Shown: in pieces, positions 24,334-64,000 of the stretch | How positions within the stretch are numbered: the first letter of the stretch is position 1 | How the letters are laid out: each line of letters begins with the position of its first letter | From: Elsinoe ampelina | Taxonomy: Eukaryota | Direction: 5' to 3' | Length of the DNA stretch: 64,000 nucleotides | NCBI GenBank assembly: GCA_010093995.1 | Contig: ML992502.1 | Coordinates: forward strand, 2,426,728 to 2,490,727 | Translations under genes and position numbers: made by a program | Notes under the pieces: model-generated | Database searches by the model: none | The model's input: the letters and a program-made list of their open reading frames with translations, nothing else | What the model was told of the DNA's origin: nothing

Positions 24334-25063
24334 TCATTTCTTCGAATCAAGTCTCGCCTTTCTCCCCCTTGCAGACCTAGCGGACCTTCGTAACGTCACC
24401 TTTTCAAAAGCTGTCGGTGCAATCGCCACAGATACAATTTTAGAAAACTCCAAGCGCCTGCTGCTGCCGCGCTGGGAAGCCCCCGAGCTTTCGGAATTTC
24501 GGCATCTTCGCGATCATTCTCGCTCGCCGTCTTTCATCCCTTTCCTTCATCTTAGCCTGGATGAATGGCAGTGCCACGCTGGAAAGACGCCAAAGAGACG
24601 CGCAATCTGTGCCATGCGTCATCCCAGAGATGTATCCCTCCTCTCCACGCCCGTGGATCTCAATCGTCATCATGCGGTCCGAATGCGCACTCTCCAGAGC
24701 TCGACTCTCCTCCTTCAGAGCGAGGAGAAATCCCGTGACCCTTTCGTGGAGTGGTCTCGAGGTGTCGGCCTTCAAGGCGTCTCTGAAGCGGAACATGAAT
24801 TCATGGTCGCGGTAGACGTTGATGGTCCGGCGGTTGTTCTCGCGGATCATCTTGTTGATCTCGACTTGACTGACGCCCATATTGACTATTTCGGCGCTGA
24901 CGCCAGGACCTCTGTTGTACTTCTGGCGGAACCGTTGACTGGTCTGGTAATTGTCAATATTGGTCGCGGTATCTGGGCTCCGAGCGGCACGACTTATGGT
25001 TGGTTCCTCGCCGGACTGAGGTGCTGGGGATACGCTCGTTCTTGTTGGCTCGAAGCTTGCCAT
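24334..25063 (-). pseudogene. Orphan partner gene copy P1 (NRR/RRSAR family), apparently frameshifted near the 3' end
   Basis: ORF from MASFEP (25063) has MGVSQVEINKMIRENNRRTINVYRDHEF...LWRLS and stops at 24440. The family tail VTLRRSARSARGRKAR continues in the adjacent frame (RRSAR at 24390-24376, stop 24336-24334). Confidence 0.7.
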
Positions 25064-25674
25064 GGCTGGAAAAATGTTGCTAGCTTGTTTCGACGAGAAG
25101 TCCGTTGGAGATATGTCGAGTGTCGCTGATGTTCTTGAGCAGACGATCGACAGTCGTCGTCGGCGGGGCCGGGGCAAATCAACTGAAGTTCACGTTGAAA
25201 CTTCAATGCAACCATCCGGCTCTGTGTGGCTGCACAGCTTAATGACTGGCTAGACATGAAGGACCTGTCCTACAGCAGCAAGATTTTTCCCTGGCTCGCG
25301 AGACTCGTCTCTTCCCCTTCTACTTTCATTCTGCTTTTCCTCGAGATTCCCATCGATCTCATCACTCTTCTGCCAACATGTCTGACAACATATCTAACGA
25401 TATGTCTGCCCGCATCCAAGCCCCGCCAGTCATACAGCTTGTTGCTGACGACTTTTACACCGGTGCCAAAGCACTCCTGGATCGCCTGCCGGAAGCCAGA
25501 ATCTGTCTCTCGCCCCTCGACCCCCGTCTGCAAAGCAGAATGACGGCTTGGACGGTCTCATCACTCAAGAACTTGTACGAGGGGATGAGTGTCCGATCAG
25601 CAACATGTCCTGCTCATCAGAAGGTGCGAGACCTAGACCATTAGATCGTCCACAAGCACTGATTCTACCAGGTT

Positions 25675-27034
25675 TTGTTTGCTCTCTGCGCCCGGCAAGA
25701 ATCAGAGTGCTATACTGTCGGCTCGGGTGAACATTGCAGCATCCGAGTTTGCAACGCCGCTGACATGAATCCGCTGACGAGCTCTTACTGGATGCATCTG
25801 GCGCAGATAACCTTTGTGGTTCCCCCTTCAGGACCGTGCTACGTTCAATCTCAGGGACAACGGGGATTCGGCCTGAGACACGCCTCAAAAGACAAGTCCA
25901 TTCTCCCGGGCAAAGACTTGCAGTGGTACGAATTGTCGCCAGGGGACTACGTGATGACATTCAGCCACGGTCTCGAGATGTCTATGAAGGTCTTGTCCCC
26001 CTCGCACGAGACGGACTCATTGCAATCAGACCCAGCCCGTCCGACAAAGAGGAGCTTCGCCTTGCCAAGGACACGCACTTGACGAAGATGGGCCTGTCGG
26101 ATGCTGCCCAAACTACCATTATTCGAGCTACGCGCTGTCCGAAAGAGGAATTGTCATTATTCGGCGGCGAGACGTCTGCAGAAGCAGTGAGGACCATCGG
26201 AGGCGTGGTCATCTTCCGCAAGTACGGTGACAAAGACGACCTTGAGAAAAAACAAGCAATCCAACAAGAGATCGACATCATGCGGAATCTCTCCCATGTA
26301 AGTGTGAATGACTCTTGGACGATGAAGATCACTAACGTTGCGACTAGCCCAACATCGTTTCCTTGTTCGAAGGCCCCGTTCCAGAGGACATTGAAGCCCC
26401 CGTCCTTGCTCTTGAGTTCCTCGATGGCATGTCTCTCGATAAGTTCTCCACGGACAAGGTCTCGACGCTGCCACCCCTGCTTGTTCATCGTCTTCTCCGA
26501 ACCGTACCGTCGGTGTTGGTATACATGCTCGAGCAAGAGATCGAGCATAATGACATCCGTATTGAGAATATCGTCCTGTGCACCCAGGGATTTAAACTTA
26601 TCGACTTTGGTCTGGCTAGACGTGGTGCCGACCGGTACGTTTGGAGGGACGGGGTTTCTCGTTATGCTCCGCCTGAGCTTCAGAAAAGGAGCGAGGCGCT
26701 CGTGTATGGAGCAAGAGACGTCATGGCCTTTGGCATCATTATCTTCTGGGCTTTGCGCTGGATGAATACACCGATGGGGGAGTCTTGGATTGTGTCTCAA
26801 GCCATTGACCCAGGCCCGGAGCACGATGACATGGCCACGTGGTTAGCGCATGTCCGCTCGAGCAGCATTGAGCTACCGTCGAGTCTGAACCAGCTGACGG
26901 GTCTCTTCGAGGAGAAGCCAGAGCTGCGCATGACGGCAGTGACTCTTGACCAGATCGCCCAAAAAGTGGAGAAGGCATGCATTCCGGCTGCTATCGAGAT
27001 GGGCGAGCTGGTGCGTGCCAATTACGAGTGGTAA
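25675..27034 (+). CDS. Kinase-like gene copy K1 (Ser/Thr kinase fold; 5' end uncertain, possibly frameshifted from an FHA-like N-terminal region)
   Basis: EIDIMRNLSH|PNIVSL joined across intron 26298-26347; LALEFLDG, HNDIRIENIV, KLIDFGLA, RYAPPE, RDVMAFG. The catalytic-loop Lys is replaced by Arg and the Gly-rich loop is degenerate. Confidence 0.75.
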
Positions 27035-27162
27035 CGAGAGTGATGACGAGTTCATAGGGTAGCATGTTCAACTGATTTGCAATTCCGAGACTGAGCAGCA
27101 GAAGACAACCGGTCAGAAGACGGTCCATCCGCTCTGGTGAAGCGAAAAGGTCCGGCGCTGTC

Positions 27163-28366
27163 GTGCCATTTGCCATCATGTGGCAATCCGGATCTGTTGT
27201 CGTGACACAGAGCATTGACTGGACGATGCAAGCGCCGGTGCGACCTCGGTCGTCATTAGCAGCTGACAGGGATTTGTATTTTTCTTCGATGGCAATCGCT
27301 CCGGACTCGACCACGCATATATCTATCGACATGCCCCTCCCCCTCACTGTCGAAAGCAGCGTTGCCGGACTGTCTTTCCATGAGCATACTGGAAGGTGGC
27401 ATGCCATACTCCGACCTTCTCGACAGGGTACCGAAGATGGCGCTTCGCCATGTCATCGGGATCACCTCTTCGGCCGGAAGTATAGTCGGATGTGGCTCTC
27501 TTTGCACCGGTGTATCGTTGGGCGCTCAATACAAGATGATACACGAGGTTTCAGCGTCGGTCAACAAGTACGTCTCATATGGCCATGCTGTGCACCTTCT
27601 GACGTCAAAGGCCATTCTTGCACTATATCACTGGGTCCGGAGGACGGATTCTCAAAGAAAGAATCAGGCGAATTTGATGGCGAGACAGTCGCAGAGGCTG
27701 TGGTGAGGACAGGAGGGGCTATCATGTTCCGGAAGTACGGCACTGTGAACAAGATCAAACTTGCAGTTCGGGACGAAATCGAAATACTGAAGTCAATGAG
27801 CCATGTAAGTTGCATCTATTGATGCTAGACGACGACGGTAGCTGACATTGGCAGCCCAATATAACCTCGCGCTTCGCTGGTCCTCCGCAGGATGATCTCG
27901 ATCTGGACACTAACGGACCTGTCCTCGAGCTGGAGTATCTCAACGGCGCGGGTCTTGGAAGGTTCTCGGGCTCCGGCATCTCCACCATGCCGGTTAGCCT
28001 CGTGCTGCATCTCATACTGTCGATGCTTCCAGCGCAAGTATACCTGATTGAACAGAACATCGAACGCAATGATGCCAAAATCGGGAACATCATTGTGTCT
28101 GCTTTAGTGTCAAGCCCATCGATTTCGATAGAGCGACCAAAGGTGATGGCAGGAAAGTCTGGCGAGACGGCACCTCGCGGTACATTGCACCCGAAGTCAT
28201 GGACCCAAGCGAAGACCTGGTCTACGGCTCGAGGGATGTAATGGTCTTTGGCGTCGTGCTCTTCTGGGCAGTCAGGTGGATCTTCGCGCCGGCCGGAAAC
28301 TCCTTCAAGGTCAAGAAAGCCATCGACCCTGGGAAGCACCGAGACAATGAAGAAGTCAGCACATAG
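27163..28366 (+). pseudogene. Kinase-like gene copy K2, degenerate tandem paralog of K1
   Basis: GETVAEAVVRTGGAIMFRKYG resembles K1 GETSAEAVRTIGGVVIFRKYG. EIEILKSMSH|PNI spans intron 27805-27854. Catalytic loop is RNDAKIGNII. A frameshift at ~28105 precedes IDFD...WRDGTSRYIAPE...RDVMVFG, and there is an early stop at 28366. Confidence 0.8.
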
Positions 28367-28451
28367 AATATCATAGAATTTGTACACAAGACCCATTCAT
28401 ATCATCACAACCCTCATCCCCACCCCACACACCATCCCTCCCACTCCTACC

Positions 28452-29183
28452 TCACGACAAAGCCCTCAAATCCATCACCACCCTCCCCTCGGCCTCATCA
28501 ATCTCCTTCTGGATCGCCTCCTTGACAATCGCCCCACACATCTTCGCATACGGATTCGTCTTGACCGACAACTGCTGCGCGATCTTATTCCCATACCGCC
28601 CACCCTGATAGAAGTCCCTACTCGCCAGACCCTCGATATCCTGCGCCTCCATCTTCGTGATGCTCTCGCCGACGCCGAAGACGGGCAGGCCTTGCTTCCG
28701 CATATCAGCTACTCTGAGGAGGAGCAGCCCGCGGTGTGTGTGCGCGGAGGCGAGCAGGCGGCTTTGCAGGCCAGAGACGGGGGCTTGGGGCGATGGAGGG
28801 GAGGCGAGGTCGATGCCCTTTTGCAGGTCGCGGAGGAGAGATTGGCTGGCTTCGGAGCTGGGTTGGGTGAAGAGGTCGGTCATGGGGAGGGACATGCGTT
28901 TGATTTGAGCTCGGTCGATGTATGCAGGGGCGTAGTCTGGATGGCGCTGGATGAGGGATGTCATGGCGGTGTGTGCGGTGGAGATCTGTTCGGGGGAAGG
29001 CTCGGGGACATTGAGTGGCTTGAGAATGGCTGCTGATTCGTTCTTGAGCAGTTTGCAGTCTTCCGCTGATATCCCGGGGAGGTCCTCGACTTCGTGGTTG
29101 ATTTGAGCTGCTCCGGATGGGGATGATTCGGGGTCGAAGAGGGCACCGAGGACTCGGCTGTCGTTCTGGGAGAGTGCGGCCAT
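28452..29183 (-). CDS. hmgX: TPR protein, TTC36-like / HmgX-like HppD accessory factor
   Basis: PDYAPAYIDRAQ, AHTHRGLL, and C-terminal IAQQLSVKTNPYAKMCGAIV resembling the TTC36 family. Divergently adjacent to hppD. The symbol rests partly on gene context. Confidence 0.7.
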   Translation of the reverse strand: MAALSQNDSRVLGALFDPESSPSGAAQINHEVEDLPGISAEDCKLLKNESAAILKPLNVPEPSPEQISTAHTAMTSLIQRHPDYAPAYIDRAQIKRMSLPMTDLFTQPSSEASQSLLRDLQKGIDLASPPSPQAPVSGLQSRLLASAHTHRGLLLLRVADMRKQGLPVFGVGESITKMEAQDIEGLASRDFYQGGRYGNKIAQQLSVKTNPYAKMCGAIVKEAIQKEIDEAEGRVVMDLRALS

Positions 29184-29575
29184 GCTTCCAGGCTTGATCG
29201 ATGATGTTCAGATGTTTGTGGTTCTGCATGCATACCAAGGAAAATCCGAGCACGTGAGCGGCGAAGCATAGTCACGGCGATGGGACAAGGGGGGAACAAA
29301 GCGGCTCCTCGACCGGGACATCGGGTTTGCGGAACGGCTGGCGACCGAGATCTCGGGTCGCCGTGAACATTTCGGCGTCATCAGCCTCAACAAGCCGCGC
29401 AAAGCCGAGCATCACTGTTGTATCGCCAGATAACATGGAACCAGGCTACGGGTTTTTGTCAGAGGTTGAATCTTACATATCTTCGCCTTGTCTGACATTT
29501 GAATCCTCATCCACTAATCAACACTCTTGAACTACACTCTTCTTGACGATCATCAAGCAATACATCATCGACAAT

Positions 29576-30833
<1,258 letters not shown>

Positions 30834-30874
30834 ATAGATACATAATGTAATGACCGTGACGACAAAGAAATCCT

Positions 30875-31178
30875 GGGGATTGCTATTTACCCCTACCATA
30901 TTTGCTATTTACCCACCCGCCAAGACGCTAAGCTTAAAGACTGAGCTTAATGTTTTATGCCCCTACTTACGGTATATACTAAACACCTGCCTAGCGGCGA
31001 GCGACCTAGCTAAGAATATGTCCGGCTCGCACGAGCGAAGCGAGTAAGAGCTATTACTATTTACTATAGAAAATATCTAAGATATATAAGGATATAGAGA
31101 GCGTACGGAAGCTCCCGGAGCCTAGCGTCTTGGCGGGTGGGTAAATAGCAAATATGGTAGGGGTAAATAGCAATCCCC
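30875..31178. mobile_element. 304-bp non-autonomous Mutator-like MITE
   Basis: Perfect 56-bp terminal inverted repeats (ggggattgctatttacccctaccatatttgctatttacccacccgccaagacgcta). 9-bp target-site duplication agaaatcct at 30866-30874 and 31179-31187. TpA-rich interior. Confidence 0.93.
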
Positions 31179-31373
31179 AGAAATCCTGCCCTGCCTGTCA
31201 TTTCCAGAGCTGTGATTGGTCAGTGTACAGTCAGCAGGTGAGCCGCGGCTATCCGCGCCTTCCCTTCCGTGAACCGTCTTGCTCCGATCTGAACGCGGCT
31301 TTGTACAACCACAACCGACCGCTTTCCGGCTTGTAACGAGTACCATCGCGCTCAGGCGCTCACGCGTCACAAC

Positions 31374-33748
31374 ATGCGCCTGAAAGCGTTCGTTGAATCT
31401 GCATGTCAATATGATGATAGCTAACACAATGGCAAAGGAATATGGCCTGTGATCGATGCCGGCATGTAGTCCAGAGCAAGCTTCTGTGATGCAGAAACTG
31501 ACCGGGACAGGCGTATGAAAACAAAATGCGACGATGCCAGACCGGTTTGTGGCACATGTAAGCAACGCCGTAAGGAGCATCAATGCACCTACTTCGGCGG
31601 TGGCGGAATCGCCAGAGGCAGACCTCGCAAGGATGCCGTCCTACAAAGGCCATCCACATTCATGGGCTTTGATCCAGCCGGGACACCCCGGTCGGTCGGT
31701 GTCAGCTCACGTCCTACAACAACGCCAAAACCTCCTCCAACTTCGGCCCTGGCAGCTTCAGCGACCGATGATCGGCATACCGCCGATAGCATAGAGCGTC
31801 TTGTCGAGGCTAAGATCCAGCAAATGCAAGTCAGCAAAGACATTTGACTTTCGGGCAGACCTGACACCTCGTAGGCTCGGGGGATCTCTGAATCCGGCTG
31901 CCACCACCGTTGGTCGAGATGTTTCCCTAGCAAGACAAGACTCCCCTCCACAGGTCGCCGCAAGCATTGAGAGACCCCCGGCGACGTCCGAAGAAGTATG
32001 GGTGACCTACAGGCAGACCTGGTGAGCAGGATCTAGTCATGTCTAGAAAACGCCTCTGACCAAGGTAGCCAGCTACAGGAAGAGGATGAGGCCAAGTCGG
32101 ATCTTACGGAAACCTACTCTCAACAGCTGCACTGTCAACCACTGCCTCTCCTAAATATTGACCTCTTGCGGGACACCCTAGATACATGTCCAGACTACTT
32201 ATTCTTTGCTGTCTACCTCGTTATCGGCTGCAGCATCGCCAGGTCTGATGACTACCCGCACGTGTCGTTCAAAGCGCTGGCACGCATGTTGACACAAGTT
32301 CTTTCTTCCGTCGAAAACCCTTCCCTGGCAACCGTCCAAGCATACTGTCTCCTTTCATGGACATGGATCTATGGTGAGCTATAGCTTGCCTATAAAGGGC
32401 TTTTCTAATATCAAACAGTGGGTGATCGCACAGCTGCGCAGATCAGCTTCACTAGCGCAAGCATCATCTTCGACGAGATCACAGATCGCAGTGTTAGGCA
32501 TCGGCATGGCCCAGACAGTGACGATGATCTGCTTCGCTGCTGTCAAAGCATCTTCATACTCAAATGCATGATGGTCAGAAAGAATTCGACCTTCGAACGT
32601 CGCCCTGCTCTACCTCCCCAATTGGCACCACCCAAGCCACCTGCTTTGGTCGAGACGGAGAACGGAAACCCTCAGCCGGCGGATCTCGGACTTATGGCGT
32701 ATACAGTCAACCTGTTCGGCATCTTCACTCGTGCTCTGGCCTTTGTCCAGTCATTCGGAACTCCTGCGCAAGCGGAGCACTGGCATGCAGACTCGAATTA
32801 TCATTCTATCATCCAGGATCTGAACAATTTCGAGACGACGTTGTCCCAGGAGCACAGAGTGAAGCGGCTTCGATTTGAGCAGCGGACTATTGAGGAGATC
32901 GACCACCAGCGTCTATATTGGGCTCCTTGGTTCACGATGCAGCTCCTGTTCCACGGTATCCAAGCGCTCATCAACCACCCTCTGCTGCATTTAGTGGAGC
33001 AAAGACGGGAGGCTTGCTTTCGGCCGCCTTCCTTCAGTCAGCATACATCGGATCAAGCTCGACTTCATGCCGGCTGGATCATCCACCTGATTCGAGCGGC
33101 AGCAGCGAAGGATTTCGAGCTTCACGATCCTTTCCTGGCGTTCATAGCTGCCACGACTGCTACAGTCTATCTGTTTTGGACATTCGACAAAGACAAAAAA
33201 GCGGCCGAGGATGCTCTGATATCATTCAGAACTTGTGTCGACTTTGTGCGGTCGAAAGCAGAAGGCGAGTCGCACTTGCGCTTCACAGTATGTTTCAGCA
33301 AGAACAAATAGACTGGGAAAGACTGACCATGTCTTAGCTGGCACGTCTGGAAATGCTAGAGCAGTCAGCAAGTCGCATGTCCGACGGACGAGATCCACGT
33401 CCAAGACCTAGTGCAGCCATCGAGATCCTGCTGCCGATCTTCGAGTACTGTAGGACTGATCCTGTCGATCAGATTCTGGACGGTGACGGAGCCGTGCCAC
33501 TTCCTATCACATCTGAGTTCCTGACCTCACCGCATGCTATCTCGGCGGGAGCTACACCGAACCCGAACAATGGTACACAACAAGACACTGGAGCAACAGA
33601 ATCTGGATCAAGGGGTAACAGCATGATTGACGAGAGCACGAATTTCTTTACTGGAGGTAGTGAGTTTGGCAACATTAATATCTTCGATACGTCAGACATT
33701 CTGAACACGGCTCTGCTTGATGGGAGTCTCTGGCCTGGTCAGTTGTGA
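31374..33748 (+). CDS. Zn(II)2Cys6 fungal transcription factor (multi-exon)
   Basis: Splicing 31388-31437 and 31462-31510 gives MRLKANMACDRCRRMKTKCDDARPVCGTCKQRRKEHQCTY. The middle region is fungal-TF-like (HCQPLPL, SLATVQAYCLLS, WFTMQLLFHGIQALINHPLL). Further short introns lie near 31830, 32022, 32373 and 33288. Confidence 0.85.
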
Positions 33749-34044
33749 TGAAGAGATCTGAAAGTCTAGAAGCTCTTGCGGCGACGCTTCAGATATACGA
33801 TGCATCGGGAATTGCTCGAGGGTTTACATTTATCAATTCGAGGCATGGGACAGAGCATGACTACAAGATATAGATACGCATGTGTATCATTGAAACGATT
33901 GACTTCTATCCAGCACTCAGACTACATCTGGTACTATTTCTCTACAAATTGCCTCTTCTGTGCAGGCTGTCTGAAGCCTACGGTCAGCAACGGCTTCAGC
34001 CTGAAAGAGTCTAGGTTTCGAGCTATTCTTCAGCTCAAACCCAT

Positions 34045-35413
34045 CTATAGCGATACAGACGACTTCATCAGTACCTTCTTCCTCGCAAACGACGCCCTGA
34101 TGTTCGGCGCCATCTCGACAGCCTGTCGCACCGACCCGAGCGCTGTCTTCTTCGCGGCCACCAACAACTCATTCGGACTCATTCTGTTCACGGCCTTCGC
34201 AGCCGCAGCCTGCTTGATATGAATATCAAACATCCCCAAGCTCTCGCACTGCCACACAGTCTCTTCCACAGTGGCTTGATGCAGATCTCTCTGGTCGTCC
34301 TCAGTACGCAGCAGCCCGAGATCAAAAGGATGATGGCGTGGCAATGCCTTCCAGCCCAAAGCGAAGAGAAACGTGGGCATGAAAGCATACGTATCGCGCT
34401 TCCCAGCGTGCAAAAGTGGGTCCACGGGATCCAGCACATCGAGCGCGACATAGGCCGCTGTGCCCGAGAAGCGAGGCCCCGTCCGACGTCCTCGAGTGGC
34501 GAGGCCGAAGTCGATGAGCTTGACCTGGGTGTCATTGATGAGGATGTTCTCGGGTTTGACATCGTTGTGCTCGACGCGTTGCTCCACGAGATAGCACAGG
34601 ACTTCTGGGAAGGCTTGTAAGAGGGCGAAGACTCGATCGGCGGGGAGGGTGCAGAAGTTTTGGGGGTCGCGGTAGGCGGAGAGGTCTTTTTGGCCGAGGA
34701 ATTCGGTGTAGAGAGCGGTTGAGATGGGGTCGATGGCTGGCCAGGGGGTCATGAGCTGGACGATGTTCTTCTGGGTTGTATGTGTCAGTCTTTCCTACTC
34801 TGAGGGTGCATTATGGTATACTGACGTGCGACAGCTTCGTCAGCATCTTTTTCTCCTCCTGAATGTACTCTTTGGCTTTCGTATTCCGACCTTCCTTCTC
34901 GACGATCGTTCTGTCGCCTTCTCGGAACACTCGGACGATAGCATTAGAGTTGATTGCGATGATGGAATTGCTGACTCGAGGCCGATCAGAGCTGTCGGAC
35001 TTCTCAACTTCTGCTGGGAAGCCAGTCGTGGAGATTGTTCGAGGTGGAAGTGCAGGAAGTCCTGCCTTTAGTCGATCTTGCTCTCCCGCCCCCTCGACTT
35101 TATCTCCTTCTGCTGATACAGACGACTTTTCTTGCTCATCATGTGTTTCCTGAGGTGCTTGGGATGTTTGAGCCTCTGCAGTCGAATTATCTTTTGCATC
35201 TACTGCCGCGCCAATGGCGTGAATGGTCGAGGCTTCGGAGCTGCCAGCAGATTGTGAAAGACCCCGAGTCGTCTGGCCCTCTCTGACCGAGGACACTTCT
35301 TCCAAGGATCTTGATAGATGGGTTTCTGTTCTTGCGAGAGCCATGGTGGTTGAGTTTGAAAATCGGATGTGAAAGCCGTCGTGGCAGAATGTGCAACCAT
35401 GGAACTTATTCAA
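34045..35413 (-). CDS. Kinase-like gene copy K3 (start uncertain)
   Basis: EEKKMLTKLSH|KNIVQL across intron 34771-34825; LYTEFLG, HNDVKPENILI, KLIDFGLA, GTAAYVALD, KRDTYAF. Confidence 0.82.
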
Positions 35414-35653
35414 GGGAAGACATCGTGTTGTTTTGTCTCGTGCTACACCTTCCTTGTGGTCGGCTCCATTCGTTCAGAAAAGATCTTTGGGCAATCTAGC
35501 CGCTGGTGTCACCGACGAGGAGCCCGGCCACAGTTTGGCCAGTGTCGAGGTGGCGTTGAGCTTGTACGACCTGAACACCGCAATCCTTCATGGCCTTGTC
35601 TTGTCTCGAAGAACCGCTCACTTCATTTCATACAAGCTATCGAGTAAGACGAG

Positions 35654-36290
35654 ATGTCAGGTACCAAGATTCATGCAGTTCGGCATCCCTGGGAGGTCCC
35701 AGAGGTGACTCCAGAGCCCGACTTCTTCGATGACGACCGGCCCGTTCGTGCGCTCAGTCCCACGAGTCGGTCTAACAGCTGATTCTGAACAGGACCTCGC
35801 ACGGCCTACGACAAGATTGCTGTTGTCCAGGATGGGCATCGACAAAGCTCGTCAACAGCAGCTGTCACTCACCCACAACCGCCGCGTCGTCAAGATCCGC
35901 AGCGACGGCGAATTTCTCTACGAACTCCACAAATACATCGCCCGTCATCGATGCAAGAACATCGAGCGCCTCATAGGCCGCTACTTGATGCGACAAGAGC
36001 AAAGAGACAAAGAACTAGAGGCACAGCACAAAGAAAGCATGATCCCCGTCATGGTGCTCGGGGTAAGAGAGCCGAGTGGTCGAGTCTTCTTCAATGCTGC
36101 AACGCATTGTCGGACGATGTGGTTCTTGTCGAAGCTTGCGGAAGATTTGTTGGAGGAGAAGAAGGCGGTGAGGGTGGCGGAGATGCATGCCACGATCAGG
36201 GAGGAGATTGCGAAGTTCAAGGAGCCGCAATTACGGAGGTCGGCCCGGATCAGGGGGAGGATGGAGAGGAGCGGAAGGCAGGGGCGGTGA
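35654..36290 (+). CDS. Orphan partner gene copy P2 (NRR/RRSAR family)
   Basis: Exon 1 35654-35743 (MSGTKIHAVRHPWEVPEVTPEP...), intron 35744-35792, exon 2 with MGIDKARQQQLSLTHNRRVVKIRSDGEF...MWFLS...LRRSARIR. Confidence 0.82.
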
Positions 36291-36398
36291 AGACTGCAGC
36301 ATCATCTTCTGATATCGTCTGTTGAGCCTCGTACATGATCTGTTTACAACCAAGTCCGGGCTGATGATAGAGATTGATATACCTTCCCAACCAGCCTG

Positions 36399-37616
36399 TT
36401 ACTCCCCCTGCTGGGAGCCAAAGAGCTCCGACTCGTCCAGCTTCAATTTCTTTCTGATCTTGTGTGCAGCGTTCATAGCCTCATCAACTGCATCGAGTGT
36501 CCGCTCCCCAAGCCTATACACATCACAGCAAATGTCAAACGGTTTGGATCTCTTCGCAGGGTCCATGCGTAGGGTCTTGGTGATTACGGAGCAGCTCGGT
36601 GGCATTTCAAAACCAATACGCTCGGCAGTGTGGGTGTACTCCAGCATTTTCTGCCTCTCGATCTCATTGCCGGTGCACGCGTCGGCAGCAAGAAACTCAT
36701 CACCTTCCGGGAATCGAATGATCCGACACGCCACGGTCATGACCACACCAAAGGCATAGCTATCTCGAGCGCCTGGATAAGCCATCGGATCCTGGTTCCG
36801 AAGCGTCTCTGCAGGCATGTACGGTGCGGTGTCGCACATCATCGCTCCAGTTTGTGATCCGACTGTCGCGCAACCGAAGTCGATCAAAATTGGCTTGCCC
36901 TTCGAGATGAGAATGTTGTCCGGCTTAATATCATTGTGAGTGATACCTTGCTTGAATAGCTCAAAAAGGACGTCGGGGAACTCTCCCAGAAGCGCGGCAA
37001 CCACGTGTCTCTCGAGCGTCGAGAATTTGTCCTCGTCGACATAGTAGCTCATGTCGCAAGCATCGTCAAACAGTTCGAGTACCACTGAGTCGCCCCTTGG
37101 ATCTGGTTCCTGACCAATGAAGACCTTGATGATAGATTTCTGCGCTTCTCAACATAATCATCCGCAGTGGGATGCATGACATATGCTTACATGGTCCAAT
37201 CTTACCAGAGCCTCCCTTTCGCGCCTGAGAGCCGCAAGACCTTCTTTCCCAGCACAGAACTTCACCGCTCGGACGTGATTGTCCAGCTTCACCTTGACGA
37301 TCATGGAGTTCTGCGTGTTGGCCACCACCTGCGGATATGCACGAGCTAGATCCCTCCACCTCGGCTCCATGTCGTCTTCGGAAGAACTTGCACTCTGGCC
37401 AGGCGAGGCCGAAGACCGTGTACTTGTCAATTGTCCAGATCCATCTTTAGCCCAACAGATGTCCGCTCCAGAAGATTCGAATGGACTTGGGAGCCGCTGT
37501 CGGCGTCTTTTGGACAGTGTCTCGGTGTCGCGGACTCGTTCGTCATGGGTCGGCGAGTTGCGTATGTCCAAGAGCCATGGATCGACATAGAGAGTCTTTT
37601 CTGAGGAGCTCTGCAT
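36399..37616 (-). CDS. Kinase-like gene copy K4
   Basis: VRAVKF...REREALVRLDH|KSIIKV across intron 37140-37190; VVLELFD, HNDIKPDNILI, LIDFGCA, TAPYMPAE, RDSYAFG, DPAKR. Confidence 0.85.
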
Positions 37617-37962
37617 CTCTCAATTCCTTTCACTGTCTTCGATGTAGCGTATGAATATTTCGTGGTCGTTTCCCTCGACTATGCTCCGTTATCAAAAGAA
37701 GGAGTCACGATTTGATGGAATGAGTGCGTGACTCTGCATCCATCTCGAGTTCAAATACTGTCCCCATCGTGCCCACAGGATCACTTTTCATGGTGTACAC
37801 GAGCTGAGGCGAGTGGCTGAGAAACATCCATGTAGCCGCTTGTGTAACCACAACACAATACCCCACCAGCAATCTCATCTTTGTGCTCAACTGGAGAATC
37901 AAGAACCTCGTCCGCATGAGTGAATCCCATAATGCCTGCAAGGTTTGAAACCTTTCGCAAAG

Positions 37963-38657
37963 ATGAACATACGAATTGCTGGTACAGCTTTTGTACTGCC
38001 ACGTCCAAGTCCAGAGCTGTGGATGGGGATAAGTCGGTCAGATGTAAGGGACAACTGGGCCAAAAATATGGCAAGTACTAAATTTCTGAACAGAATGGCC
38101 GTCGATCAGGGCGAACTACGTTGCGAAGCAGTCTTGAAGAGATTGGTCTGTCTGGAAGCCGCCTGGACGAGCTACTTCTTAGTCACAATCGCCGTGTGGT
38201 AAAAAACCAGTCTGATCGCAGATTTTCAAGACGTCTGCTTGCTCATCTTCGAATGAGGGACGGTAATCTCGAGCAGCATATCGGAGAGTTTCTCATGCAG
38301 CAAGAGCAGCAGCACGCCACAGCTGAGAAATTACACGAGAACAGAATTCTGAGTGTGATGGCTTATGGACGCTCGTACAAGCCGGAGATATCCAACACAG
38401 ATCTATCCACAACTACCACGGCATTATGGGAAGTCTCAGATTTGGCCGATGCTATTCTTCGGGAGAAGGAGGAAGAAAGTGTCCGAGCATTTCGCGAGGA
38501 GATGTACCCCGAGGAGGATGCCGTCGCTACCGTGGAGGTGGAGCCTGAAGCTGTACCTACGCGACCGAGACACAAGGTCAAGAGACGTCGGAGGTGCAAA
38601 CAACCGCCAATCAGAAGGTCTGCTCGTCTTCGTGAGCAGGCGAGGAAGAAGAGTTGA
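37963..38657 (+). CDS. Orphan partner gene copy P3 (NRR/RRSAR family)
   Basis: Exon 1 37963-38043 (MNIRIAGTAFVLPRPSPELWMGISRSD), intron 38044-38093, exon 2 with IGLSGSRLDELLLSHNRRVVKNQSDRRF...LWEVS...PIRRSARLR. Confidence 0.85.
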
Positions 38658-39192
38658 CAGCGAGTGCACCAGATGTATCGAGGATCTCATTCAGCGTTGC
38701 GCCAAAGCTTGCTATTCAGGAGTTGTATAGTCCTCGTAGAGCCATTTGAGGCGTAGAATCGCTCTACTATAGGAGTCGTAGGAGTTCACGAAAAAGTCCT
38801 CGAGCACCATAACTGTGCAGCACCCTTTTTCTTGTTGACTTGGTCTGCATCTTGTGTCTTTGAGAAGCTCCAGGTCAGGTCTATCGCAAGAAGTATGTAT
38901 TTTGTGGATTCTGAAGTAATGTAGCAAGCTGAGCGAGGGATCTGTCGATTTTGCAGCATCGTGCTTGACCGGCGCCAGCCTGAAATACGTCGATACCATC
39001 GTTTACTTCTTCGCAAGAGTAATAGCACAAGGATATCCCGACTGGCTGAGAGCATCCCAGAAGCGCTTGTGTAACACCAGCCGCCTTGTGACACCGCGCC
39101 CAGGAAAGCAGCTTGGGTACAAGAACACAGTCCCGCCACATTTCCTTGAGCGTCGCCATTCCAACCTCATGATCAAGCTGAGCCATTGAGCT

Positions 39193-39894
39193 ATGCCCGA
39201 AATGAGTATAAAAATTGCAGGTGCTACATTGGAAGTTCCGCGGCCTAGCCCGGAGGCCAAACTAGGCATCTTAAAGGCGGTTGTAAGTGTATCAAATCCC
39301 ACGTAGTAATTAGTCCGTAACACAGTGTAGCATCATGGTCGAGTTGCAAAGCGACCGACTTTGCGAGAACGATTGGAGGCGCGAGGAGTGACCAGGGCTC
39401 GTCTGAAGGAACTTGTTCTTGGTCAAAATCGCAGGGTAGTGAAAAAGCAGTCAGACCGTCAATTCAGCTGGCAGTTGTTGAGGTACCTCGAGGCCAGAGA
39501 CGGCAATCTTGAGCAACATATCAACGGCTACCTCATGCAGCTGGAGAGAAGCCAGGCCGAAGCAGAACGAAAACATGAAGAAAGGACTCTCATCGTATCG
39601 ATATATGGAGGCCAGATCGTCCCGGAATGTACAGCCGTGAATTGTCAGACCACCACAAGTGCGCTCTGGGCGGTGTCTAAGATAGCATACATCATGCTGA
39701 AAGAGAGACACGAGGAAGAGGTCAGGCAGGGTAGAATGAGACTGTACCCAGAAGAATTTGCGGTGCCGACAGTTGAGACGGAAATTGCTCCACAGACTCT
39801 GGCCAAGCAGCCGAAGGTCCGAAAAATCGAGAGGCAATCTCCGGTCAGAAGATCACTTCGGTTGCGAGAGAAGCAACAAAAACGACAGAATTGA
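39193..39894 (+). CDS. Orphan partner gene copy P4 (NRR/RRSAR family)
   Basis: Exon 1 39193/39202-39282 (MSIKIAGATLEVPRPSPEAKLGILKAV), intron 39283-39330, exon 2 with RGVTRARLKELVLGQNRRVVKKQSDRQF...LWAVS...PVRRSLRLR. Confidence 0.85.
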
Positions 39895-40011
39895 TTAAGA
39901 GAAAGCGTCTAGTAGCAATGCTAGGACGGGATGGTTCTTCCATCAGCCATCGTCTCGAGCCGGAGATATTTCGCTGCGGCTTATCAGTGCTGCTGGAACG
40001 TGGCGTATGGT

Positions 40012-40803
40012 TTAGTCGTCTCCGGAAGCAGCGACTGTAACACGTATGGTCGCCGCCATCGCTTGGGCTTTCTTGATGTTGCTGACTCGGATAGACTTGA
40101 CAGCCTCGCAAAGCTCCTCTGGGCTCATCCTGTCTTTAGCTTCTATCTCGAATGCATCCTGAAGAGGGATGTTGAAAATTGCCAAGTTTTCGGCTTCGTT
40201 CCAGCCGTCTTGTACAAACTTGAGCAATTTCTCGCCTTCCGGGCCACTGGAACCAAGTGAGAGAACATCGTAGGGCGGGTGTTCGGGGTCCTTCCTCCAT
40301 CCCAGCGCAAAGAGAAACGTGTAAGTCAAGGCGAAGATGTCGCGATGGTCAGGGTATAGAAGCGGATCTCTATTCTGCAGGATCTCAAGAGGCACATAGC
40401 CTGGTGTTCCGCCGTGATATGGTCCCTTCTGGTGGCCCTTGGCAGACAAGCCGAAGTCAGTCAGCTTGATGGAGTTCGGACCGATGATGATGTTGGCTGG
40501 CTTAATATCATTATGCTCAATTCCATGCTTGACTGGATACTTGATAACATCAGGCATCTCATCTACCATAGTGTGGACCCGTTCTGGATCTGCGTTGCAG
40601 TACCCCTTGGAGTCGACATGCCGGGAGAGATCCAGACCGTCTAGATGCTCCAGTAGCAGCGAGAATGCATTTCTGTCAAGCGCTCCTTCCCAGGACGGTC
40701 GGCCGAGTACTACCAAAGCAGGAATCACGTGACCAGAGCTGGTTGTGGGGGCTGTACGACTTGAGCACGAAGCTCGATTTGCGAATGGCTCCTCGACAGC
40801 CAT
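40012..40803 (-). pseudogene. Kinase-like gene copy K5, open C-lobe but N-lobe apparently missing
   Basis: LLLEHLDG, HNDIKPANIII, KLTDFGLS, GGTPGYVPLE, RDIFAL, DRMSPEEL. There is no alphaC/LxH|xNI exon or conserved intron, and the first ATG is only ~35 bp from the upstream-most ATG of the divergent P5 gene. Confidence 0.7.
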
Positions 40804-40838
40804 TATACCGACAAGAGCTTAGCCTGCTGTACCTACCC

Positions 40839-41511
40839 ATGGGCAGCGTTAGGACGATGGAGACGATGGCTGTTCGTTCACCGTGGCCGGTCCCAAAGAT
40901 GAGCCCGGAGCCGCGAAGTCGCAGATCGCAAGCGGAGGTGAGAGCGAAGCACACCTGCTACCGGACAGTCAATACTGACAGCTCAGCAGTATCCAGGGTG
41001 TGAAGGTGGCGACCCGAATCTAGAACAGCTTCTGTCAACACTTGGGGTGGATGAGGGTCGCCGACGTCAGCTCTGCATGACGCACAATCGCCGTGTCGTA
41101 AAGATCCAAGAGGACAGGCATTTCTACTATGGACTATATCAGCATCTTACCAGGCATCCGCGAGTCCAACTAGAGCAAGGCATATCGAGATTTCTGATGG
41201 ACAAGGAGGAGGAAAACAGGAGAATGGAGACCGCTTTCGAGCAGAGGATAAGCAAGGTTCTTGCGCTGAGCGCTGTGTCCCACAAAGGCAACGGCATGAG
41301 CGGATTCGATACGCAATGTCGGCTGCTATGGGCGATGTCAGAGGTGTTGCATTCGCTACTGAAGGTCGAGAGCGAGAAGAAGCAGAGCGCCTGGAGGAGC
41401 AGGATCGAGCGAGAATTGGCAAAGCATGAAGCTAAGGCAGCGGCAGAAAAGCATGTTGGGGTCAGGCGATCTGCTCGTATCAGAGCACGGAAGATCGCAA
41501 ACAAGAGATAA
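40839..41511 (+). CDS. Orphan partner gene copy P5 (NRR/RRSAR family)
   Basis: Exon 1 to 40937 (..MAVRSPWPVPKMSPEPRSRRSQAE; possible ATGs at 40839, 40857, 40866), intron 40938-40986/40989, exon 2 with LGVDEGRRRQLCMTHNRRVVKIQEDRHF...LWAMS...VRRSARIR. Confidence 0.82.
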
Positions 41512-42342: not shown

Positions 42343-43470
42343 TCATGCCTCCTCCACAGCCTTCACCACCTCTCCCCACCCCACACCCCACCCCTCATAC
42401 CCCCTCTCCACCGTAACAAACACGCCCTCGACACCCTCCTCCTTCGCCCTCCTCACCACCTCGGCCTCCTCCCCCCTCCCTCTCGGACAAGAATGCACCA
42501 TCACGGTACTCTTCCTCCTGACCTCCCTCCCGCCCTCAAACCCATCCAAGCCCCTATCCACCCACGCCCCGTACCCATCCTCAAAACACGTCACCTTGTC
42601 CGCAAACTCATAATACCTCTCGGCAACCGGACACCCAGGATTCGTCCACACCAAACACCCCCGGCTCAGACTCCGTCGGATATAAGCGTGCAAACTCGAC
42701 ATGTACCCCAAGTGCCTCTCATGATGGGGCGCCTCGTCGACGAAAATCCCGGAGATGTGGATGTCGACTGCGCCCTCGTCCAGGTCCCTCCTCCGCTGGG
42801 CGCCCGCGAGCGTCACTCCGCTATCCATCGGCCGTAGTGGGGAAGACACCTTCATCGCCGACGCGGACGTGGGCGGGATGGTGGGCGAGGGAGGCAGGGA
42901 TTGCTTGTTCCAGCGCTCGTACCGGCGGACGTCTTCGAAGACGTCTTCGAGAGAACGCTCTGCCCACTTGACGTGCACGTACCCGAAGAGCGTGGCGTTG
43001 GGGTACGTGTTCAGCCGCGTGACTTGGCGGACGTAGTTGGCATCCGGGGTGTCGCCGCCTGGCCCATTGGCGGGATTGATGATGATGTCGAATTGTACGG
43101 TGGGGTGTTGGGAGAGGGCGGTGAAGAGGGGGTCCCAGGAGGTGGAGGTCGGGTAGATGTACAGCGGCACCTGGAGGCGGAGTTTGCGGAGGGGTTTGGG
43201 GGAGCGGGATGTGCGGGACGCCATGGAAGAGGAGGTGTCGGAGGGAGGGGAGAGGCGGGAGGTGGAGCTGGGGGATTTTTGGCGTAAGTTGTCGCGGGAT
43301 TTGGTGCGGCGTTGGTAGGTAGGGGAGTAGAAGCCTGAGACGGTGGTTGTGGTTGTGGTTTTGGGTTTGTAGCCTTGGGGACCGTCGAAGGCGGATTGTT
43401 TGGTGGGCACCGGTGGGGGACAGCCGGAGAGGCGGTCGTGGAGGTCGCGGAAGAAGGCGCGGACAGGCAT
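42343..43470 (-). CDS. sph3: Spherulin-4 family (GH135) glycoside hydrolase, Sph3-like
   Basis: VPLYIYP...WDPL...FDIIINPANGPG...PDANY, FGYVH, ISGIFVDEAP, VWTNPG, VTCFE. Adjacent to the GAG synthase. Confidence 0.85.
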   Translation of the reverse strand: MPVRAFFRDLHDRLSGCPPPVPTKQSAFDGPQGYKPKTTTTTTVSGFYSPTYQRRTKSRDNLRQKSPSSTSRLSPPSDTSSSMASRTSRSPKPLRKLRLQVPLYIYPTSTSWDPLFTALSQHPTVQFDIIINPANGPGGDTPDANYVRQVTRLNTYPNATLFGYVHVKWAERSLEDVFEDVRRYERWNKQSLPPSPTIPPTSASAMKVSSPLRPMDSGVTLAGAQRRRDLDEGAVDIHISGIFVDEAPHHERHLGYMSSLHAYIRRSLSRGCLVWTNPGCPVAERYYEFADKVTCFEDGYGAWVDRGLDGFEGGREVRRKSTVMVHSCPRGRGEEAEVVRRAKEEGVEGVFVTVERGYEGWGVGWGEVVKAVEEA

Positions 43471-45329
43471 GGCTGGAAGTTGGCCGCCGAGAAGAGTAAT
43501 GTATGTATCCAGGGTTGATGACGGTCAGTAGTGGAAGCAGGGACGGGGCCACGTGTTGGGCGTCACTGGCGGGCGATCAGCGTCACTACTTTGTGGCTAG
43601 TAATAATAAGAAATATAGATGGCAAGTCCCAAGTGGCAGGCGACAGAAGTATATACAGAAACATGTCAAGCTGAGTTCGTGGAAGAGAAGGCGCACGGGT
43701 CAGACGGTGCGTGGTCAGAGGGGCAGGGCCAAAAGGCAAAGCTTGATCTCGGGTTTCGGATTCAATACAAGAACTGAGAAGGGGTAAGGATAGACAGTTC
43801 AGTGGAGCACGAGCAGGAGCAGAGCAGGAGCACGAGCGTCGGGAGCGTCAGGAGCGGGCTTCAGCTCGGAATGGGCCCGTGGTGCATGACAGTGGTTACT
43901 AGGTATGACACCAGACCGAGTAGAAGCAAAGTCAGACTGGACTACTAAGTTACTGTCTGTGACCAGCCAAGTAGTGTCGAGGATGATGTTTCTTTTCACA
44001 GTGCTCGAGCTTTGAAACGGTGCCGCTCTTGGGTTCGGCTGGCTTTGAAACGCACCCAAACAGAGGCCAGCTCGTCGTGTTTCTGCCTCGCTTCCTCCAT
44101 CTTTTGCCTATCTTTGTCTCGCATCATTTTACCCAGAATTCACCCACGATGGAGCTCTGTAGCCCGGTTTTCCTCATCCACCATGCCATGCAAATGCCAC
44201 GCCACGCCTCACACATGCTCAATCCATTCTTTCGTCTTCCCATTCCATGCCACGACGATCTACCGCATCTATCGAAAACCCCCCATCCTTCCTGCCCATA
44301 ACATCCACCGCCTCTCGCTTCCCTTCCTTCCCGCCCCTTGCCCTGCGCGACACATCTTCTCTGTTTTCGGTTCCCCTCTGTCCCAAAGTGTAGAGTTCGC
44401 GGGAAAAAATACGACATTGCTTCTGACTTGTCTCCCGAACGAGATGATCACCATTTCCCTCTTTGCATTTATTTCGCGATTGAATTCCGCTGTATCTGCT
44501 GCCCTCGCCCTATTATCCTGTCATTTGCACCGCCTCTGGTGCCACGTGTGGACCACAATTCCATCATTCATTATTGCCTCCGTACAGACCGCTGCCCATC
44601 ATCATCTCACCCTTCCCCTCCCTCCCTCTCCCTTCCTCACCCCTCTCACCCTCCGTCCATCCCGCAACCAAGCACCACTCCCACCCGCCCTGCACGCGCG
44701 ACCTTGCCCGCCCGGCCGCGTAAAAACCACGTTGAGAAAGGGCACATCCCAAACCCACAAACCACGCCCCCCACCGTGCGCATTCTCTTCGCGGGACGGA
44801 AATAGAACACACGCGCCTGCAATAGACTTTTTTTTTTATTTTCTGCCCACGACCCGCTCCACGCTGACGATGGCTGACCCGCTGACGCTGTCTCTCGTCC
44901 AACGGGTCCTACAGTAGTACGGGTGTCGTCCCGCAGATGGCCCGCAGGACGCGAACTGAACTTGCCGGGAGCGTCATTTGCGTCGTACCGCTGGCGACGG
45001 AGGGGGGATTCCTTCCGTCTACTCTTAGGTGGGAGATGAACCTTCCATGGGCTGTCCAAAGAATCTAGTGTGAGTGAACTCGGACAAGGCGCGCAGAGTT
45101 GCTACGAGACAGATCACGATGCACAATGTAAAGTGTGAAGTGTAAACATAATCAAATTACCCTCTACGCTATGCACCTCCCCTGTACAACGCGCGCGTGT
45201 ATTCCACGGCCTCCCCTTTTTAGTGACAAGTAAACCACAACAACAAAGCGACAACTACATGGGATATCAAGCCTGTTCCTTTTTCCCTCCCCTCTATACC
45301 AATACCAATACCAATACTGCACAAACATT

Positions 45330-63488: not shown

Positions 63489-64000
63489 ATGGGTAACAGT
63501 ATCTCATCCTCAATCCTTGCAGGTCTTGGAGTCGCCGCTCGCTCTTCCACTACTACAAGACCAGCCACAACCGCCACCAGACTTCCAACCTCATCTACTA
63601 GTGTAATTCCAACCACCACTAGACTCCCGACGACCACAACGGCCGTCGTTTCCAGCAGCATGACTTCCGTCAGCTCAAGCTCCACCGCTGTGCCGGTCAC
63701 AGGCGGCTCAGTGGCCAACACCATCCTTGTTCTCGCAAAGGACACTGATGGCTTGTACACTTCCACCTCCGGTCTCAACGGCTACGGCATTCCTTTTCAG
63801 TCAATCATTGTTCCTCAGTCCGGCATCCAGCTCCCAGCGCTGAACTCTTCGGCTACTCAGGGTAACTTTGGTGGTATCATTGTTCACGCTGAGGTCTCCT
63901 ACGACTTCGGTAATGGCAACTGGTCCAGCGCTCTTACCCCTGCCCAATGGGCCGACCTCTATAACTACCAGACCGCCTTCGGCGTCCGCATGGTCCGCCT
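63489..64000 (+). CDS. agd3: GAG deacetylase Agd3-like (5' part; runs off the window)
   Basis: Open frame from ATG 63489: a Ser/Thr-rich N-terminus, then NTILVLAKD...TSGLNGYGIPFQSIIVPQSGIQLPALNSSATQGNFGGII...SALTPAQWADLYNYQTAFGVRMVR. Divergent from ega3. Confidence 0.85.
   Translation, partial: MGNSISSSILAGLGVAARSSTTTRPATTATRLPTSSTSVIPTTTRLPTTTTAVVSSSMTSVSSSSTAVPVTGGSVANTILVLAKDTDGLYTSTSGLNGYGIPFQSIIVPQSGIQLPALNSSATQGNFGGIIVHAEVSYDFGNGNWSSALTPAQWADLYNYQTAFGVRMVR

Follow-up and report, generated by a model that had tools for sequence, protein, structure and literature searches.

We describe an array of ten loci, spanning ~17 kb (24.4–41.5 kb) within a 64-kb stretch of the genome of the grapevine anthracnose fungus Elsinoe ampelina, a Dothideomycete, in which five protein kinase genes (K1–K5) are interspersed with five members of an orphan gene family (P1–P5), and in which four of the kinase genes lie head-to-head with a P gene. 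We refer to the entire 64-kb stretch as the window; two of its proteins are identical to the E. ampelina entries KAF2227064.1 (P5) and KAF2227054.1 (K1), which share a contig of 2,759,397 bp. The repeated pairing is genuine and far exceeds what chance would give, and we are highly confident of the structural and evolutionary description of the array that is given below. As to what the pairing means, we tentatively propose, with slightly less than even confidence, that K and P form an old, genus-restricted module of a kinase and a basic, chromatin-docking partner, which was duplicated en bloc and whose kinases are now in decay. No published description of the K/P pair was found among literature titles on the E. 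ampelina genome or on Elsinoe kinases and divergently transcribed genes.

Four head-to-head kinase–partner units in one array

The ten loci were defined in the window by a combination of stop-to-stop open reading frames (ORFs), Pfam matches and tblastn. K1 and K2 are encoded on the + strand, and K3, K4 and K5 on the − strand; P1 is on the − strand, and P2, P3, P4 and P5 are on the + strand. This layout generates four head-to-head units: P1(−)/K1(+), K3(−)/P2(+), K4(−)/P3(+) and K5(−)/P5(+). These are the same divergent pairs, on the same strands, that had been put forward in an initial annotation of this DNA. Unit P1/K1 is inverted relative to the other units. Three of the divergent spacers are of similar length: P1|K1 (25064–25377, ~315 bp; GC content 0.51, taken over 25064–25379), K3|P2 (35345–35653, 309 bp) and K4|P3 (37617–37962, 346 bp); the K5/P5 spacer is 37–96 bp. 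We found no sign of a common promoter motif, in that no 8-mer was shared by at least three of the five spacers compared. Nor were there any further copies of K or P in the window at E ≤ 1e-3, when all of the K and P models were used as tblastn queries. P4 had been described as unpaired, and that remains our own conclusion: the 544-bp gap on its upstream side (38658–39201) contains no tblastn match to K even at E ≤ 5.

Our RNA evidence consists of contigs from four public runs (those cited below are X1, X2 and X4) that were placed on the region, and which differ at only 4 positions; we conclude that these contigs derive from RNA, since they contain GT..AG joints. They show 0–1 differences from the assembly. 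We gave no weight to uncovered parts or to differences in depth. According to these contigs, K1, K2 and P2 are transcribed and spliced.

P1–P5 encode a family of small, basic proteins

The P proteins are ~190–215 residues in length and are basic (pI 10.1–10.3); the loci are mutually 19–51% identical, and have in common the motifs HNRRVVK, LW..S and RRSAR. The most divergent copy is P1 (24440–25063, −; protein P0002), a single exon that encodes 207 aa with a pI of 10.2; it has neither the intron that is described below nor the C-terminal RRSAR motif. P2 (35654–36290, +; 195 aa) comprises exons 35654–35743 and 35793–36290, and ends in QLRRSARIRGR...; its intron, 35744–35792, is spliced in an RNA contig of run X1, and the resulting N-terminus matches that of the E. 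fawcettii orthologue. P3 (37963–38657, +; 214 aa; exons 37963–38043 and 38094–38657) ends in PIRRSARLREQ..., and P4 (39202–39894, +; 214 aa; exons 39202–39282 and 39331–39894), to which P3 is 50–51% identical, ends in PVRRSLRLREK.... An unspliced 302-nt contig of run X2 lies on P3 (38270–38571). P5 (40840–41511, +; protein P0001) is annotated as a 186-aa protein that begins at 40899; the first exon ends at 40937, the intron occupies 40938–40989, and the second exon (40990–41511) ends in GVRRSARIRAR.... Two in-frame ATG codons further upstream, at 40840 and 40858, lengthen the match of P5 to the N-terminus of E. fawcettii P0003 (57% over 21 aa). Thus P2–P5 have an intron in common, which is in phase 0 and follows a first exon of 27–33 aa; it is RNA-confirmed in P2 only.

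We also observed a proline-flanked Ser/Thr-Pro site, resembling P-[ST]-P-E-P, in the first exons of P2–P5 and in the N-termini of P0003 and P0005; its forms are VTPEP, PRPSPE, PRPSPE, KMSPEP, VSPEP and PRPSSPP. The site could be a proline-directed phosphosite.

The initial annotation did not recognize the family to which P belongs, and neither do we. There is no Pfam family for P, and a P profile has no sequence match in the PDB at E ≤ 10. In an AlphaFold2 model of exon 2 of P3 (pLDDT 71.6, pTM 0.46), the predicted fold is all-helical, over ~130 residues, and consists of three short helices with a long hairpin after them. The best match of this fold in the PDB by Foldseek has an E value of 3.7, which is not meaningful; with VIA-align, the best Z score (6.5) is to generic helical hairpins, and is below the meaningful level for helical models. 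In the ESM Atlas, we retrieved only Ascomycota clusters without a name (0.92–0.93; recognition 1841, below 2300), plus one lead at 0.87 to a cluster in which DDE_1 occurs in 15% of the members; a search of the named clusters yielded nothing usable.

An exhaustive search of 1.84 billion representatives with the P profile returned 7 matches, 6 of them genuine: two proteins encoded in the window, one from E. fawcettii (KAF4554724.1), two from E. batatas (KAG8627861.1, KAG8628002.1) and one from a further assembly. The other match, P0006, is a 675-aa repeat protein (E 3e-12, accumulated from 8 weak repeats) that we judged by eye to be spurious. The same profile found 2 matches in a word-indexed collection of 5.8 billion sequences, fewer than in the exhaustive search; we take this as a limit on the sensitivity of the indexed search. 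The equivalent K profile detects five close proteins, with E values between 1e-100 and 2e-33: two encoded in the window, one from E. batatas (KVT40_004346) and two from other assemblies. Generic kinases follow from E 1e-11; a search with K3 as a single sequence adds E. fawcettii KAF4554723.1 (P0128; 49% identity). In terms of sequence matches, therefore, the K and P families are both almost confined to Elsinoe. In the course of these searches we noted that K4, P3 and P4 have no identical annotated protein among profile matches that should have included them; these three genes may have been missed when the genome was publicly annotated.

K1–K5 are divergent kinase genes, two of which are intact

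The sequence of K places it among the eukaryotic Ser/Thr protein kinases, as a divergent and weakly CAMK-like member. The exons for the C-lobes of K1, K3, K4 and K5 score 49–57 bits against Pkinase (PF00069; E 5e-13 to 2e-15; cut-off 31.7 bits), and the relatives P0011, P0012, P0128 and P0129 score 67–85 bits; a K2 piece is below the cut-off (14.6 bits, E 0.021). Scores against FunK1/Pkinase_fungal (PF17667) were 17.4, 15.4 and 11.2 bits, below its gathering score of 24.1 bits. His, Asn, Asp, Asn, Asp, Phe and Gly are invariant columns in the K alignments, with the exception of K2, in which HND and DFG are replaced by RND and DFD. Inspection of the N-lobe by eye identified candidates for the beta3 lysine (IVEK, AVKF, FRK) and for the alphaC glutamate, both of which activity requires; at the position of the Gly-rich ATP-binding loop, K1 has GG and K3 and K4 have no glycine, and K5 has no N-lobe. 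The K paralogues are 26–40% identical, and their pI values (4.9–6.3) contrast with those of P.

The best solved relatives of P0011 are CDPK/CaMK, IKK, ULK3, twitchin, DCLK and PknB, none of which matches better than E 5e-12. With CAMK-like kinases (CDPK, DCLK, DAPK, twitchin) K shares the match to Pkinase, solved relatives at E 5e-12 to 1e-6, the catalytic Asp/Asn and the DFG motif. On the other hand, K forms a clade of its own that is separated by a large gap in score, its catalytic loop contains HND rather than HRD, K1 and K2 have an R-I type of loop in place of K-P, the Gly-rich loop of K3 and K4 has no glycines (by eye), and there is no calcium or calmodulin domain.

K3 (34045–35344, −) is intact: it encodes 414 aa in two exons (35344–34826 and 34770–34048) that are open throughout, with a homology-predicted intron at 34771–34825, and it retains HNDVKPEN and DFG (Pkinase E 1e-14). 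The annotated version of K3 (P0127, 235 aa) represents only part of exon 2. K4 (36399–37616, −) is also intact and open throughout; its 388 aa are encoded by exons 37616–37191 and 37139–36402, separated by a predicted intron at 37140–37190, and HNDIKPDN and DFG are both kept (Pkinase E 2e-15). The depth of the RNA contigs on K4 is low.

The remaining three kinase genes are damaged, each in a different manner. K1 is divided between two ORFs in different frames: a 5' ORF (25378–26082, +; 219 aa; exons 25378–25623 and 25672–26082; stop codon 26080–26082), and a kinase ORF (26088–27034, +; 298 aa; exons 26088–26297 and 26348–27034; protein P0009) that keeps the catalytic loop, HNDIRIEN, and DFG (Pkinase E 5.3e-13). 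The split is not repaired by an intron, since an RNA contig follows the genome without a gap from 25670 to 26297. The introns on either side of the split are in use: that in the 5' ORF (25624–25671; 48 nt, GT..AG) is spliced in RNA contigs of X1 and X2, and that in the kinase ORF (26298–26347) is confirmed in X1, X2 and X4. The 5' ORF of K1 and the N-terminus of the relative P0129 had looked FHA-like to us, as in the Chk2/Rad53 architecture, an impression by eye that gained no support: Pfam (at E ≤ 10 or E ≤ 1) and PDB sequence searches (at E ≤ 10) returned nothing of the kind, the similarity of the 5' ORF to the N-terminus of P0129 is weak (E 0.028), and the AlphaFold2 model of P0129 is unusable (pLDDT 38).

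K2 (27076–28366, +) is a transcribed pseudogene. Its pieces, in three frames or pieces, are 57–78% identical to E. batatas P0011 (tblastn); in addition to the RND and DFD substitutions, it has a break in frame near 28100 and a short C-terminus. Two introns (27568–27610 and 27805–27854) are spliced in RNA contigs, and the contigs are colinear across the frame break. The original description of K2 as a relic is correct. Finally, K5 (40012–40803, −; 263 aa; protein P0010) is truncated to its C-lobe, matching Pkinase (E 1.2e-14) at HMM positions 70–186 only. We conclude that its first exon and intron were lost, since its ORF comprises the C-lobe only and lies 37–96 bp from P5.

K1–K4 also have an intron in common, which is in phase 0 and directly follows the His of L[SD]H|[PK]N/S-I; RNA contigs confirm it in K1 (26298–26347) and K2 (27805–27854). 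The proposal that intron positions are kept among the copies therefore holds for K1–K4 and for P2–P5; it does not extend to P1, which has no intron, or to K5, which has lost its own. Overall, two of the five kinases (K3 and K4) are intact, compared with all five P genes. The erosion of the kinases, through the K2 pseudogene, the split in K1 and the truncation of K5, together with the kinase-less P4, is in keeping with the birth-and-death process that had been suggested for the array; the decay is wider than had been noted, in that neither the split in K1 nor the truncation of K5 was part of the earlier picture.

The copies are old and have orthologues in other Elsinoe species

Individual copies within the array have their own orthologues in other species. 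That of P1 is E. batatas P0004 (42% identity; clade support 100/100), that of P2 is E. fawcettii P0003 (KAF4554724.1; 55% identity; sister support 93/96), that of K2 is E. batatas P0011 (support 93/92), and that of K3 is E. fawcettii P0128 (49% identity), K3 being grouped with P0128 and K5 at a support of 99/98. That single copies have orthologues of their own in other species indicates that the duplications predate speciation. Synonymous divergence (dS) between paralogues is saturated (either not computable, −1, or at least 2.9), such that the ratio of nonsynonymous to synonymous divergence (dN/dS) is uninformative. The strong divergence in the face of a conserved pairing that the initial annotation emphasized is evident both in the identities among the P loci and in saturated dS.

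The orthologues of one of the pairs are also neighbours outside E. ampelina: KAF4554723.1 (of the K3 type) and KAF4554724.1 (of the P2 type) are consecutive accessions on the same 1,318,574-bp contig of E. fawcettii, so that the single P orthologue in that species (1/1) has a kinase beside it. Furthermore, the two closest kinases, K3 and K5 (p-distance 0.65), belong to the two closest partnered P genes, P2 and P5 (0.63). A clade of P2, P0003 and P5, which would mirror that of K3, K5 and P0128, is not rejected by the P data (p-AU 0.43), and hence a comparison of the K and P trees reveals no conflict between them, by a test of low power. With four head-to-head units, three spacers of 309–346 bp, and the closeness of K3 and K5 mirrored by that of P2 and P5, it looks like the pair is the unit of duplication, as was originally suggested.

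A C-terminal RRSAR motif in P resembles the nucleosome-binding motif of HMGN

The C-terminal tail of P is variable, and only one element in it is strongly conserved: [VIL]RRS[AL]R[LI]R, which is found in four of the five window copies (P2–P5) and in P0007. The RRSAR core is present in P2, P3, P5 and P0007 (in P3 it is extended to RRSARL), and P4 has RRSLR. According to a 2025 structure paper (PMC12487698), HMGN binds nucleosomes by means of the motif RRSARLSA, of which RRSAR forms the core, and cryo-EM places HMGN2 residues 22–26 (RRSAR), as well as a related segment of Dsup, upon the H2A–H2B acidic patch, where they are held by arginine anchors. The paper also proposes that phosphorylation of the RRSARLSA region lowers nucleosome binding, with modelling of pS24 predicting repulsion from the acidic patch (PMC12487698). 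AlphaFold 3 models of HMGN2 with the nucleosome are described there as being of low confidence, with the acidic-patch-binding region wrongly oriented (PMC12487698).

By analogy, P may dock on nucleosomes as HMGN does: in common with HMGN and Dsup, P is small and basic, and has the RRSAR core. There are, however, clear differences. HMGN is confined to vertebrates, according to the same paper (PMC12487698), whereas P is fungal; HMGN is described as intrinsically disordered (PMC3105402), whereas P is predicted to be helical, with its motif at the extreme C-terminus. Beyond the motif, we found no similarity between P and HMGN, either in Pfam or among PDB chains (which include HMGN entries) at E ≤ 10. 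Since P shows no homology past the motif, and is a folded fungal protein, we do not consider it to be a member of the HMGN family.

Bearing these observations in mind, we hypothesize the following. Tandem segmental duplication would have multiplied the whole module before the Elsinoe species separated, and K and P would be transcribed divergently from a spacer of ~310–350 bp. P would reside in the nucleus and use its C-terminal RRSAR[L/I]R to bind the acidic patch of the nucleosome, in the manner of HMGN and Dsup, and the neighbouring K would be either a regulator or a client of P. In the first of these options, K would phosphorylate P, for example at the serine of the motif; in HMGN, such phosphorylation has been proposed to lower nucleosome binding (PMC12487698). 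In the second, P would carry K to chromatin. We infer the physical or functional link between K and P, the nuclear location and the kinase activity. That K and P are functionally coupled is, in our estimation, nearly an even bet; that the coupling operates through this specific RRSAR–nucleosome mechanism seems unlikely.

A more ambitious version of this idea is that K and P constitute an undescribed fungal chromatin switch: P would bind the acidic patch as HMGN does, but with a new helical fold, and its docking would be either controlled by the paired kinase or used to deliver that kinase to nucleosomes; the diverged cognate pairs would serve as parallel, insulated channels. We consider this version to be distinctly unlikely. 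A bolder variant still would see in the broken kinases next to intact P genes the footprint of a kinase toxin and a chromatin antidote. If P does dock on the acidic patch, the HMGN/Dsup mode of binding would have a fungal example, in a protein that is folded and has a kinase of its own; the authors of the 2025 paper expect an ‘untapped realm’ of such proteins (PMC12487698). In addition, kinase–partner specificity could be studied with the four cognate pairs of the array, which have diverged naturally.

Several observations weigh against the module that we propose. The RRSAR motif is a five-residue match that we noticed post hoc; it is absent from P1 and its orthologue P0004, and in E. batatas P0005 its place is taken by RRRAARW. 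Damage affects three of the five kinases but none of the five P genes, and P4 lacks a kinase altogether, from which it follows that P needs no cognate kinase next door. The missing Gly-loop glycines of K3 and K4, the only two intact kinases, render kinase activity uncertain on grounds of sequence. Adjacency to a kinase, which the initial annotation expected of P relatives in general, is upheld by consecutive accessions in E. fawcettii but not in E. batatas, where the P genes KVT40_003734 and KVT40_003875 and the K2-type kinase KVT40_004346 are 141–612 locus tags apart on one contig, and where a kinase neighbour was detected for neither of the two P genes (0/2, among annotated genes). The correlation between K and P distances is weak (r 0.49, matched by 6 of 24 permutations), and the approximately unbiased (AU) test of the trees has little power. 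The units of a single array are not independent, moreover: one chance adjacency, followed by block duplication, yields the same picture.

Expression of the array supplies further points on this side of the argument. K4, P3, P4, K5 and P5 all fall in bins with a contig depth of 0–9. The RNA contig on K3 carries a + strand GT..AG intron (34784–34834) that overlaps the predicted sense intron (34771–34825); this intron is antisense to K3, and it is not evidence of sense expression of K3. The contig, from run X1 (33338–35743, +), starts in the Zn2Cys6 gene, crosses K3 on the opposite strand and reaches P2. It may represent natural antisense transcription or an extended leader of P2; that one contig spans several genes is not proof of a single transcript. 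We also attempted to predict a complex of K1 (P0009) with P1 (P0002): the score was 0.00 and, being obtained without controls, it counts neither for nor against binding.

Other explanations for the pairing

The main rival to a functional module is passive co-duplication, which we regard as somewhat unlikely: K and P would be chance neighbours of unrelated function that were copied together by tandem segmental duplication, the short spacer offering few breakpoints, with the kinases now being lost. All of the units do indeed lie within one 17-kb array, the E. batatas members are dispersed and, as far as we could detect, unpaired, the kinases have decayed independently of P (K1, K2, K5, and P4 on its own), and the spacers share no 8-mer of the sort sought above. 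What passive copying does not readily account for is the equally narrow range of the two families, the survival of pairing and orientation through saturated divergence and through the inversion of one unit, and the fact that the K3 and P2 orthologues are still adjacent in E. fawcettii, as judged by their consecutive accessions. Even if the pairing is passive, the array would be a clear case of block duplication that was followed by one-sided decay.

The initial annotation had offered three kinds of two-gene system: toxin/antidote, allorecognition, or kinase/adaptor. We found nothing that directly supports the first two; the kinase/adaptor alternative is, by inference, the most plausible of the three. 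As a toxin/antidote, meiotic-drive or allorecognition pair, K would be harmful or would perform recognition, P would neutralize or specify it, and antidote-only copies would outlive the toxin. The pattern of broken kinases and intact P genes is what would be expected from antidote retention, and the families are lineage-restricted, fast-diverging, tightly linked and located beside a block degraded by repeat-induced point mutation (RIP). Nevertheless, we consider such a system to be quite improbable. Known drivers are typically young and polymorphic; here, single copies are very old and have orthologues in other species, which fits better with conserved genes than with young selfish elements. 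Nor did Pfam reveal a HET, NACHT or nuclease domain in either K or P. The role of sex in E. ampelina is described as poorly understood (PMC8295512).

Three known types of system bear comparison with the array. Spok-type drivers, and fungal killer or allorecognition loci, are alike in that a kinase domain resides in a lineage-restricted, repeated locus near repeat-rich DNA, a likeness that we draw by description only. Spok is one gene with both activities, whereas here there are two genes, which are old and have orthologues across species. The Fusarium head-to-head effector pairs Avr2–SIX5 and SIX8–PSE1 consist of unrelated small genes that have a short bidirectional promoter, and whose products act jointly; they resemble K/P as two unrelated genes that share a short divergent spacer. 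Those effectors are secreted, whereas by eye neither K nor P has a hydrophobic signal peptide, and K is a kinase. Lastly, HipBA is a prokaryotic operon of co-oriented genes for a kinase toxin of a different kinase fold, HipA, and a small DNA-binding antidote, HipB. The parallel lies in a protein kinase whose gene adjoins that of a small and potentially restraining partner; the sequences are unrelated, and P has no Pfam match.

It is highly improbable, in our opinion, that P is an activating subunit, that is, a cyclin-like or scaffold activator of K in the manner of CDK and cyclin. The idea draws on the name ‘pef1-like’ that was given by its source to E. fawcettii P0128, on the size of P (~200 aa) and its predicted helical nature, and on the degenerate Gly-loop of K3 and K4, which might require a partner. 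Yet ‘pef1-like’ is an automatic annotation, there is no CDK among the best 60 PDB sequence matches of P0011, and no cyclin was listed among the fold matches of P (best Foldseek E 3.7, VIA Z 6.5), which does not exclude a cyclin-like fold. As for the array being carried by a large mobile element, or having arisen through errors in annotation or assembly, its position beside a 22-kb RIP-degraded repeat block might suggest as much, but this is hardly credible: its flanks contain ordinary genes (a tannase gene; a galactosaminogalactan-type cluster), no transposase or recombinase ORF occurs in the parts scanned, and the RNA contigs agree with the assembly.

Genomic setting of the array

The initial annotation had located the array just inside a RIP-destroyed compartment, and here we disagree. 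Bases 1–22000 of the window are an AT-rich block of the RIP type (GC 0.30, TpA/ApT 1.93, (CpA+TpG)/(ApC+GpT) 0.22). From 22 kb onwards, the window is gene-rich and has no RIP signature (GC 0.53–0.55; the two indices 0.53–0.61 and 1.24–1.32), and this applies to the array too (GC 0.53, TpA/ApT 0.53, (CpA+TpG)/(ApC+GpT) 1.32). The array starts ~2.3 kb past the border of the block: it adjoins the block, rather than lying within it. For the pathogen, K/P would then represent a genus-specific regulatory module beside a RIP block and the galactosaminogalactan-type cluster.

Between K2 and K3 (28.4–33.7 kb) are three genes unrelated to either family: a 251-aa orphan, HPPD and a Zn2Cys6 factor. RNA contigs cover the orphan ORF (28452–29207, −), which lies between K2 and HPPD and has no Pfam match. 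Between HPPD and the Zn2Cys6 gene there is a possible degenerate sixth copy of P (31112–31397, −), a weak candidate given that multiple queries were used: it matches residues 38–93 of P4 at 32% identity (tblastn; E 0.025 window-wide, 2e-4 against a 701-nt subject), and 3' of it, in another frame, the sequence PTRQDARLRE resembles PIRRSARLRE.

The left flank of the array is the tannase gene. The right flank (42343–64000) is occupied by a biosynthesis cluster of the galactosaminogalactan type, a name that comes from work on Aspergillus. It includes a Spherulin4 (Sph3-like) gene (42343–43524, −), an uninterrupted ORF of 2842 aa with a GT4 domain (45330–53858, −), a gene for an NAD epimerase (Uge3-like; 57031–58455, −) and an Agd3 CBM87 domain (63405–63998, +).

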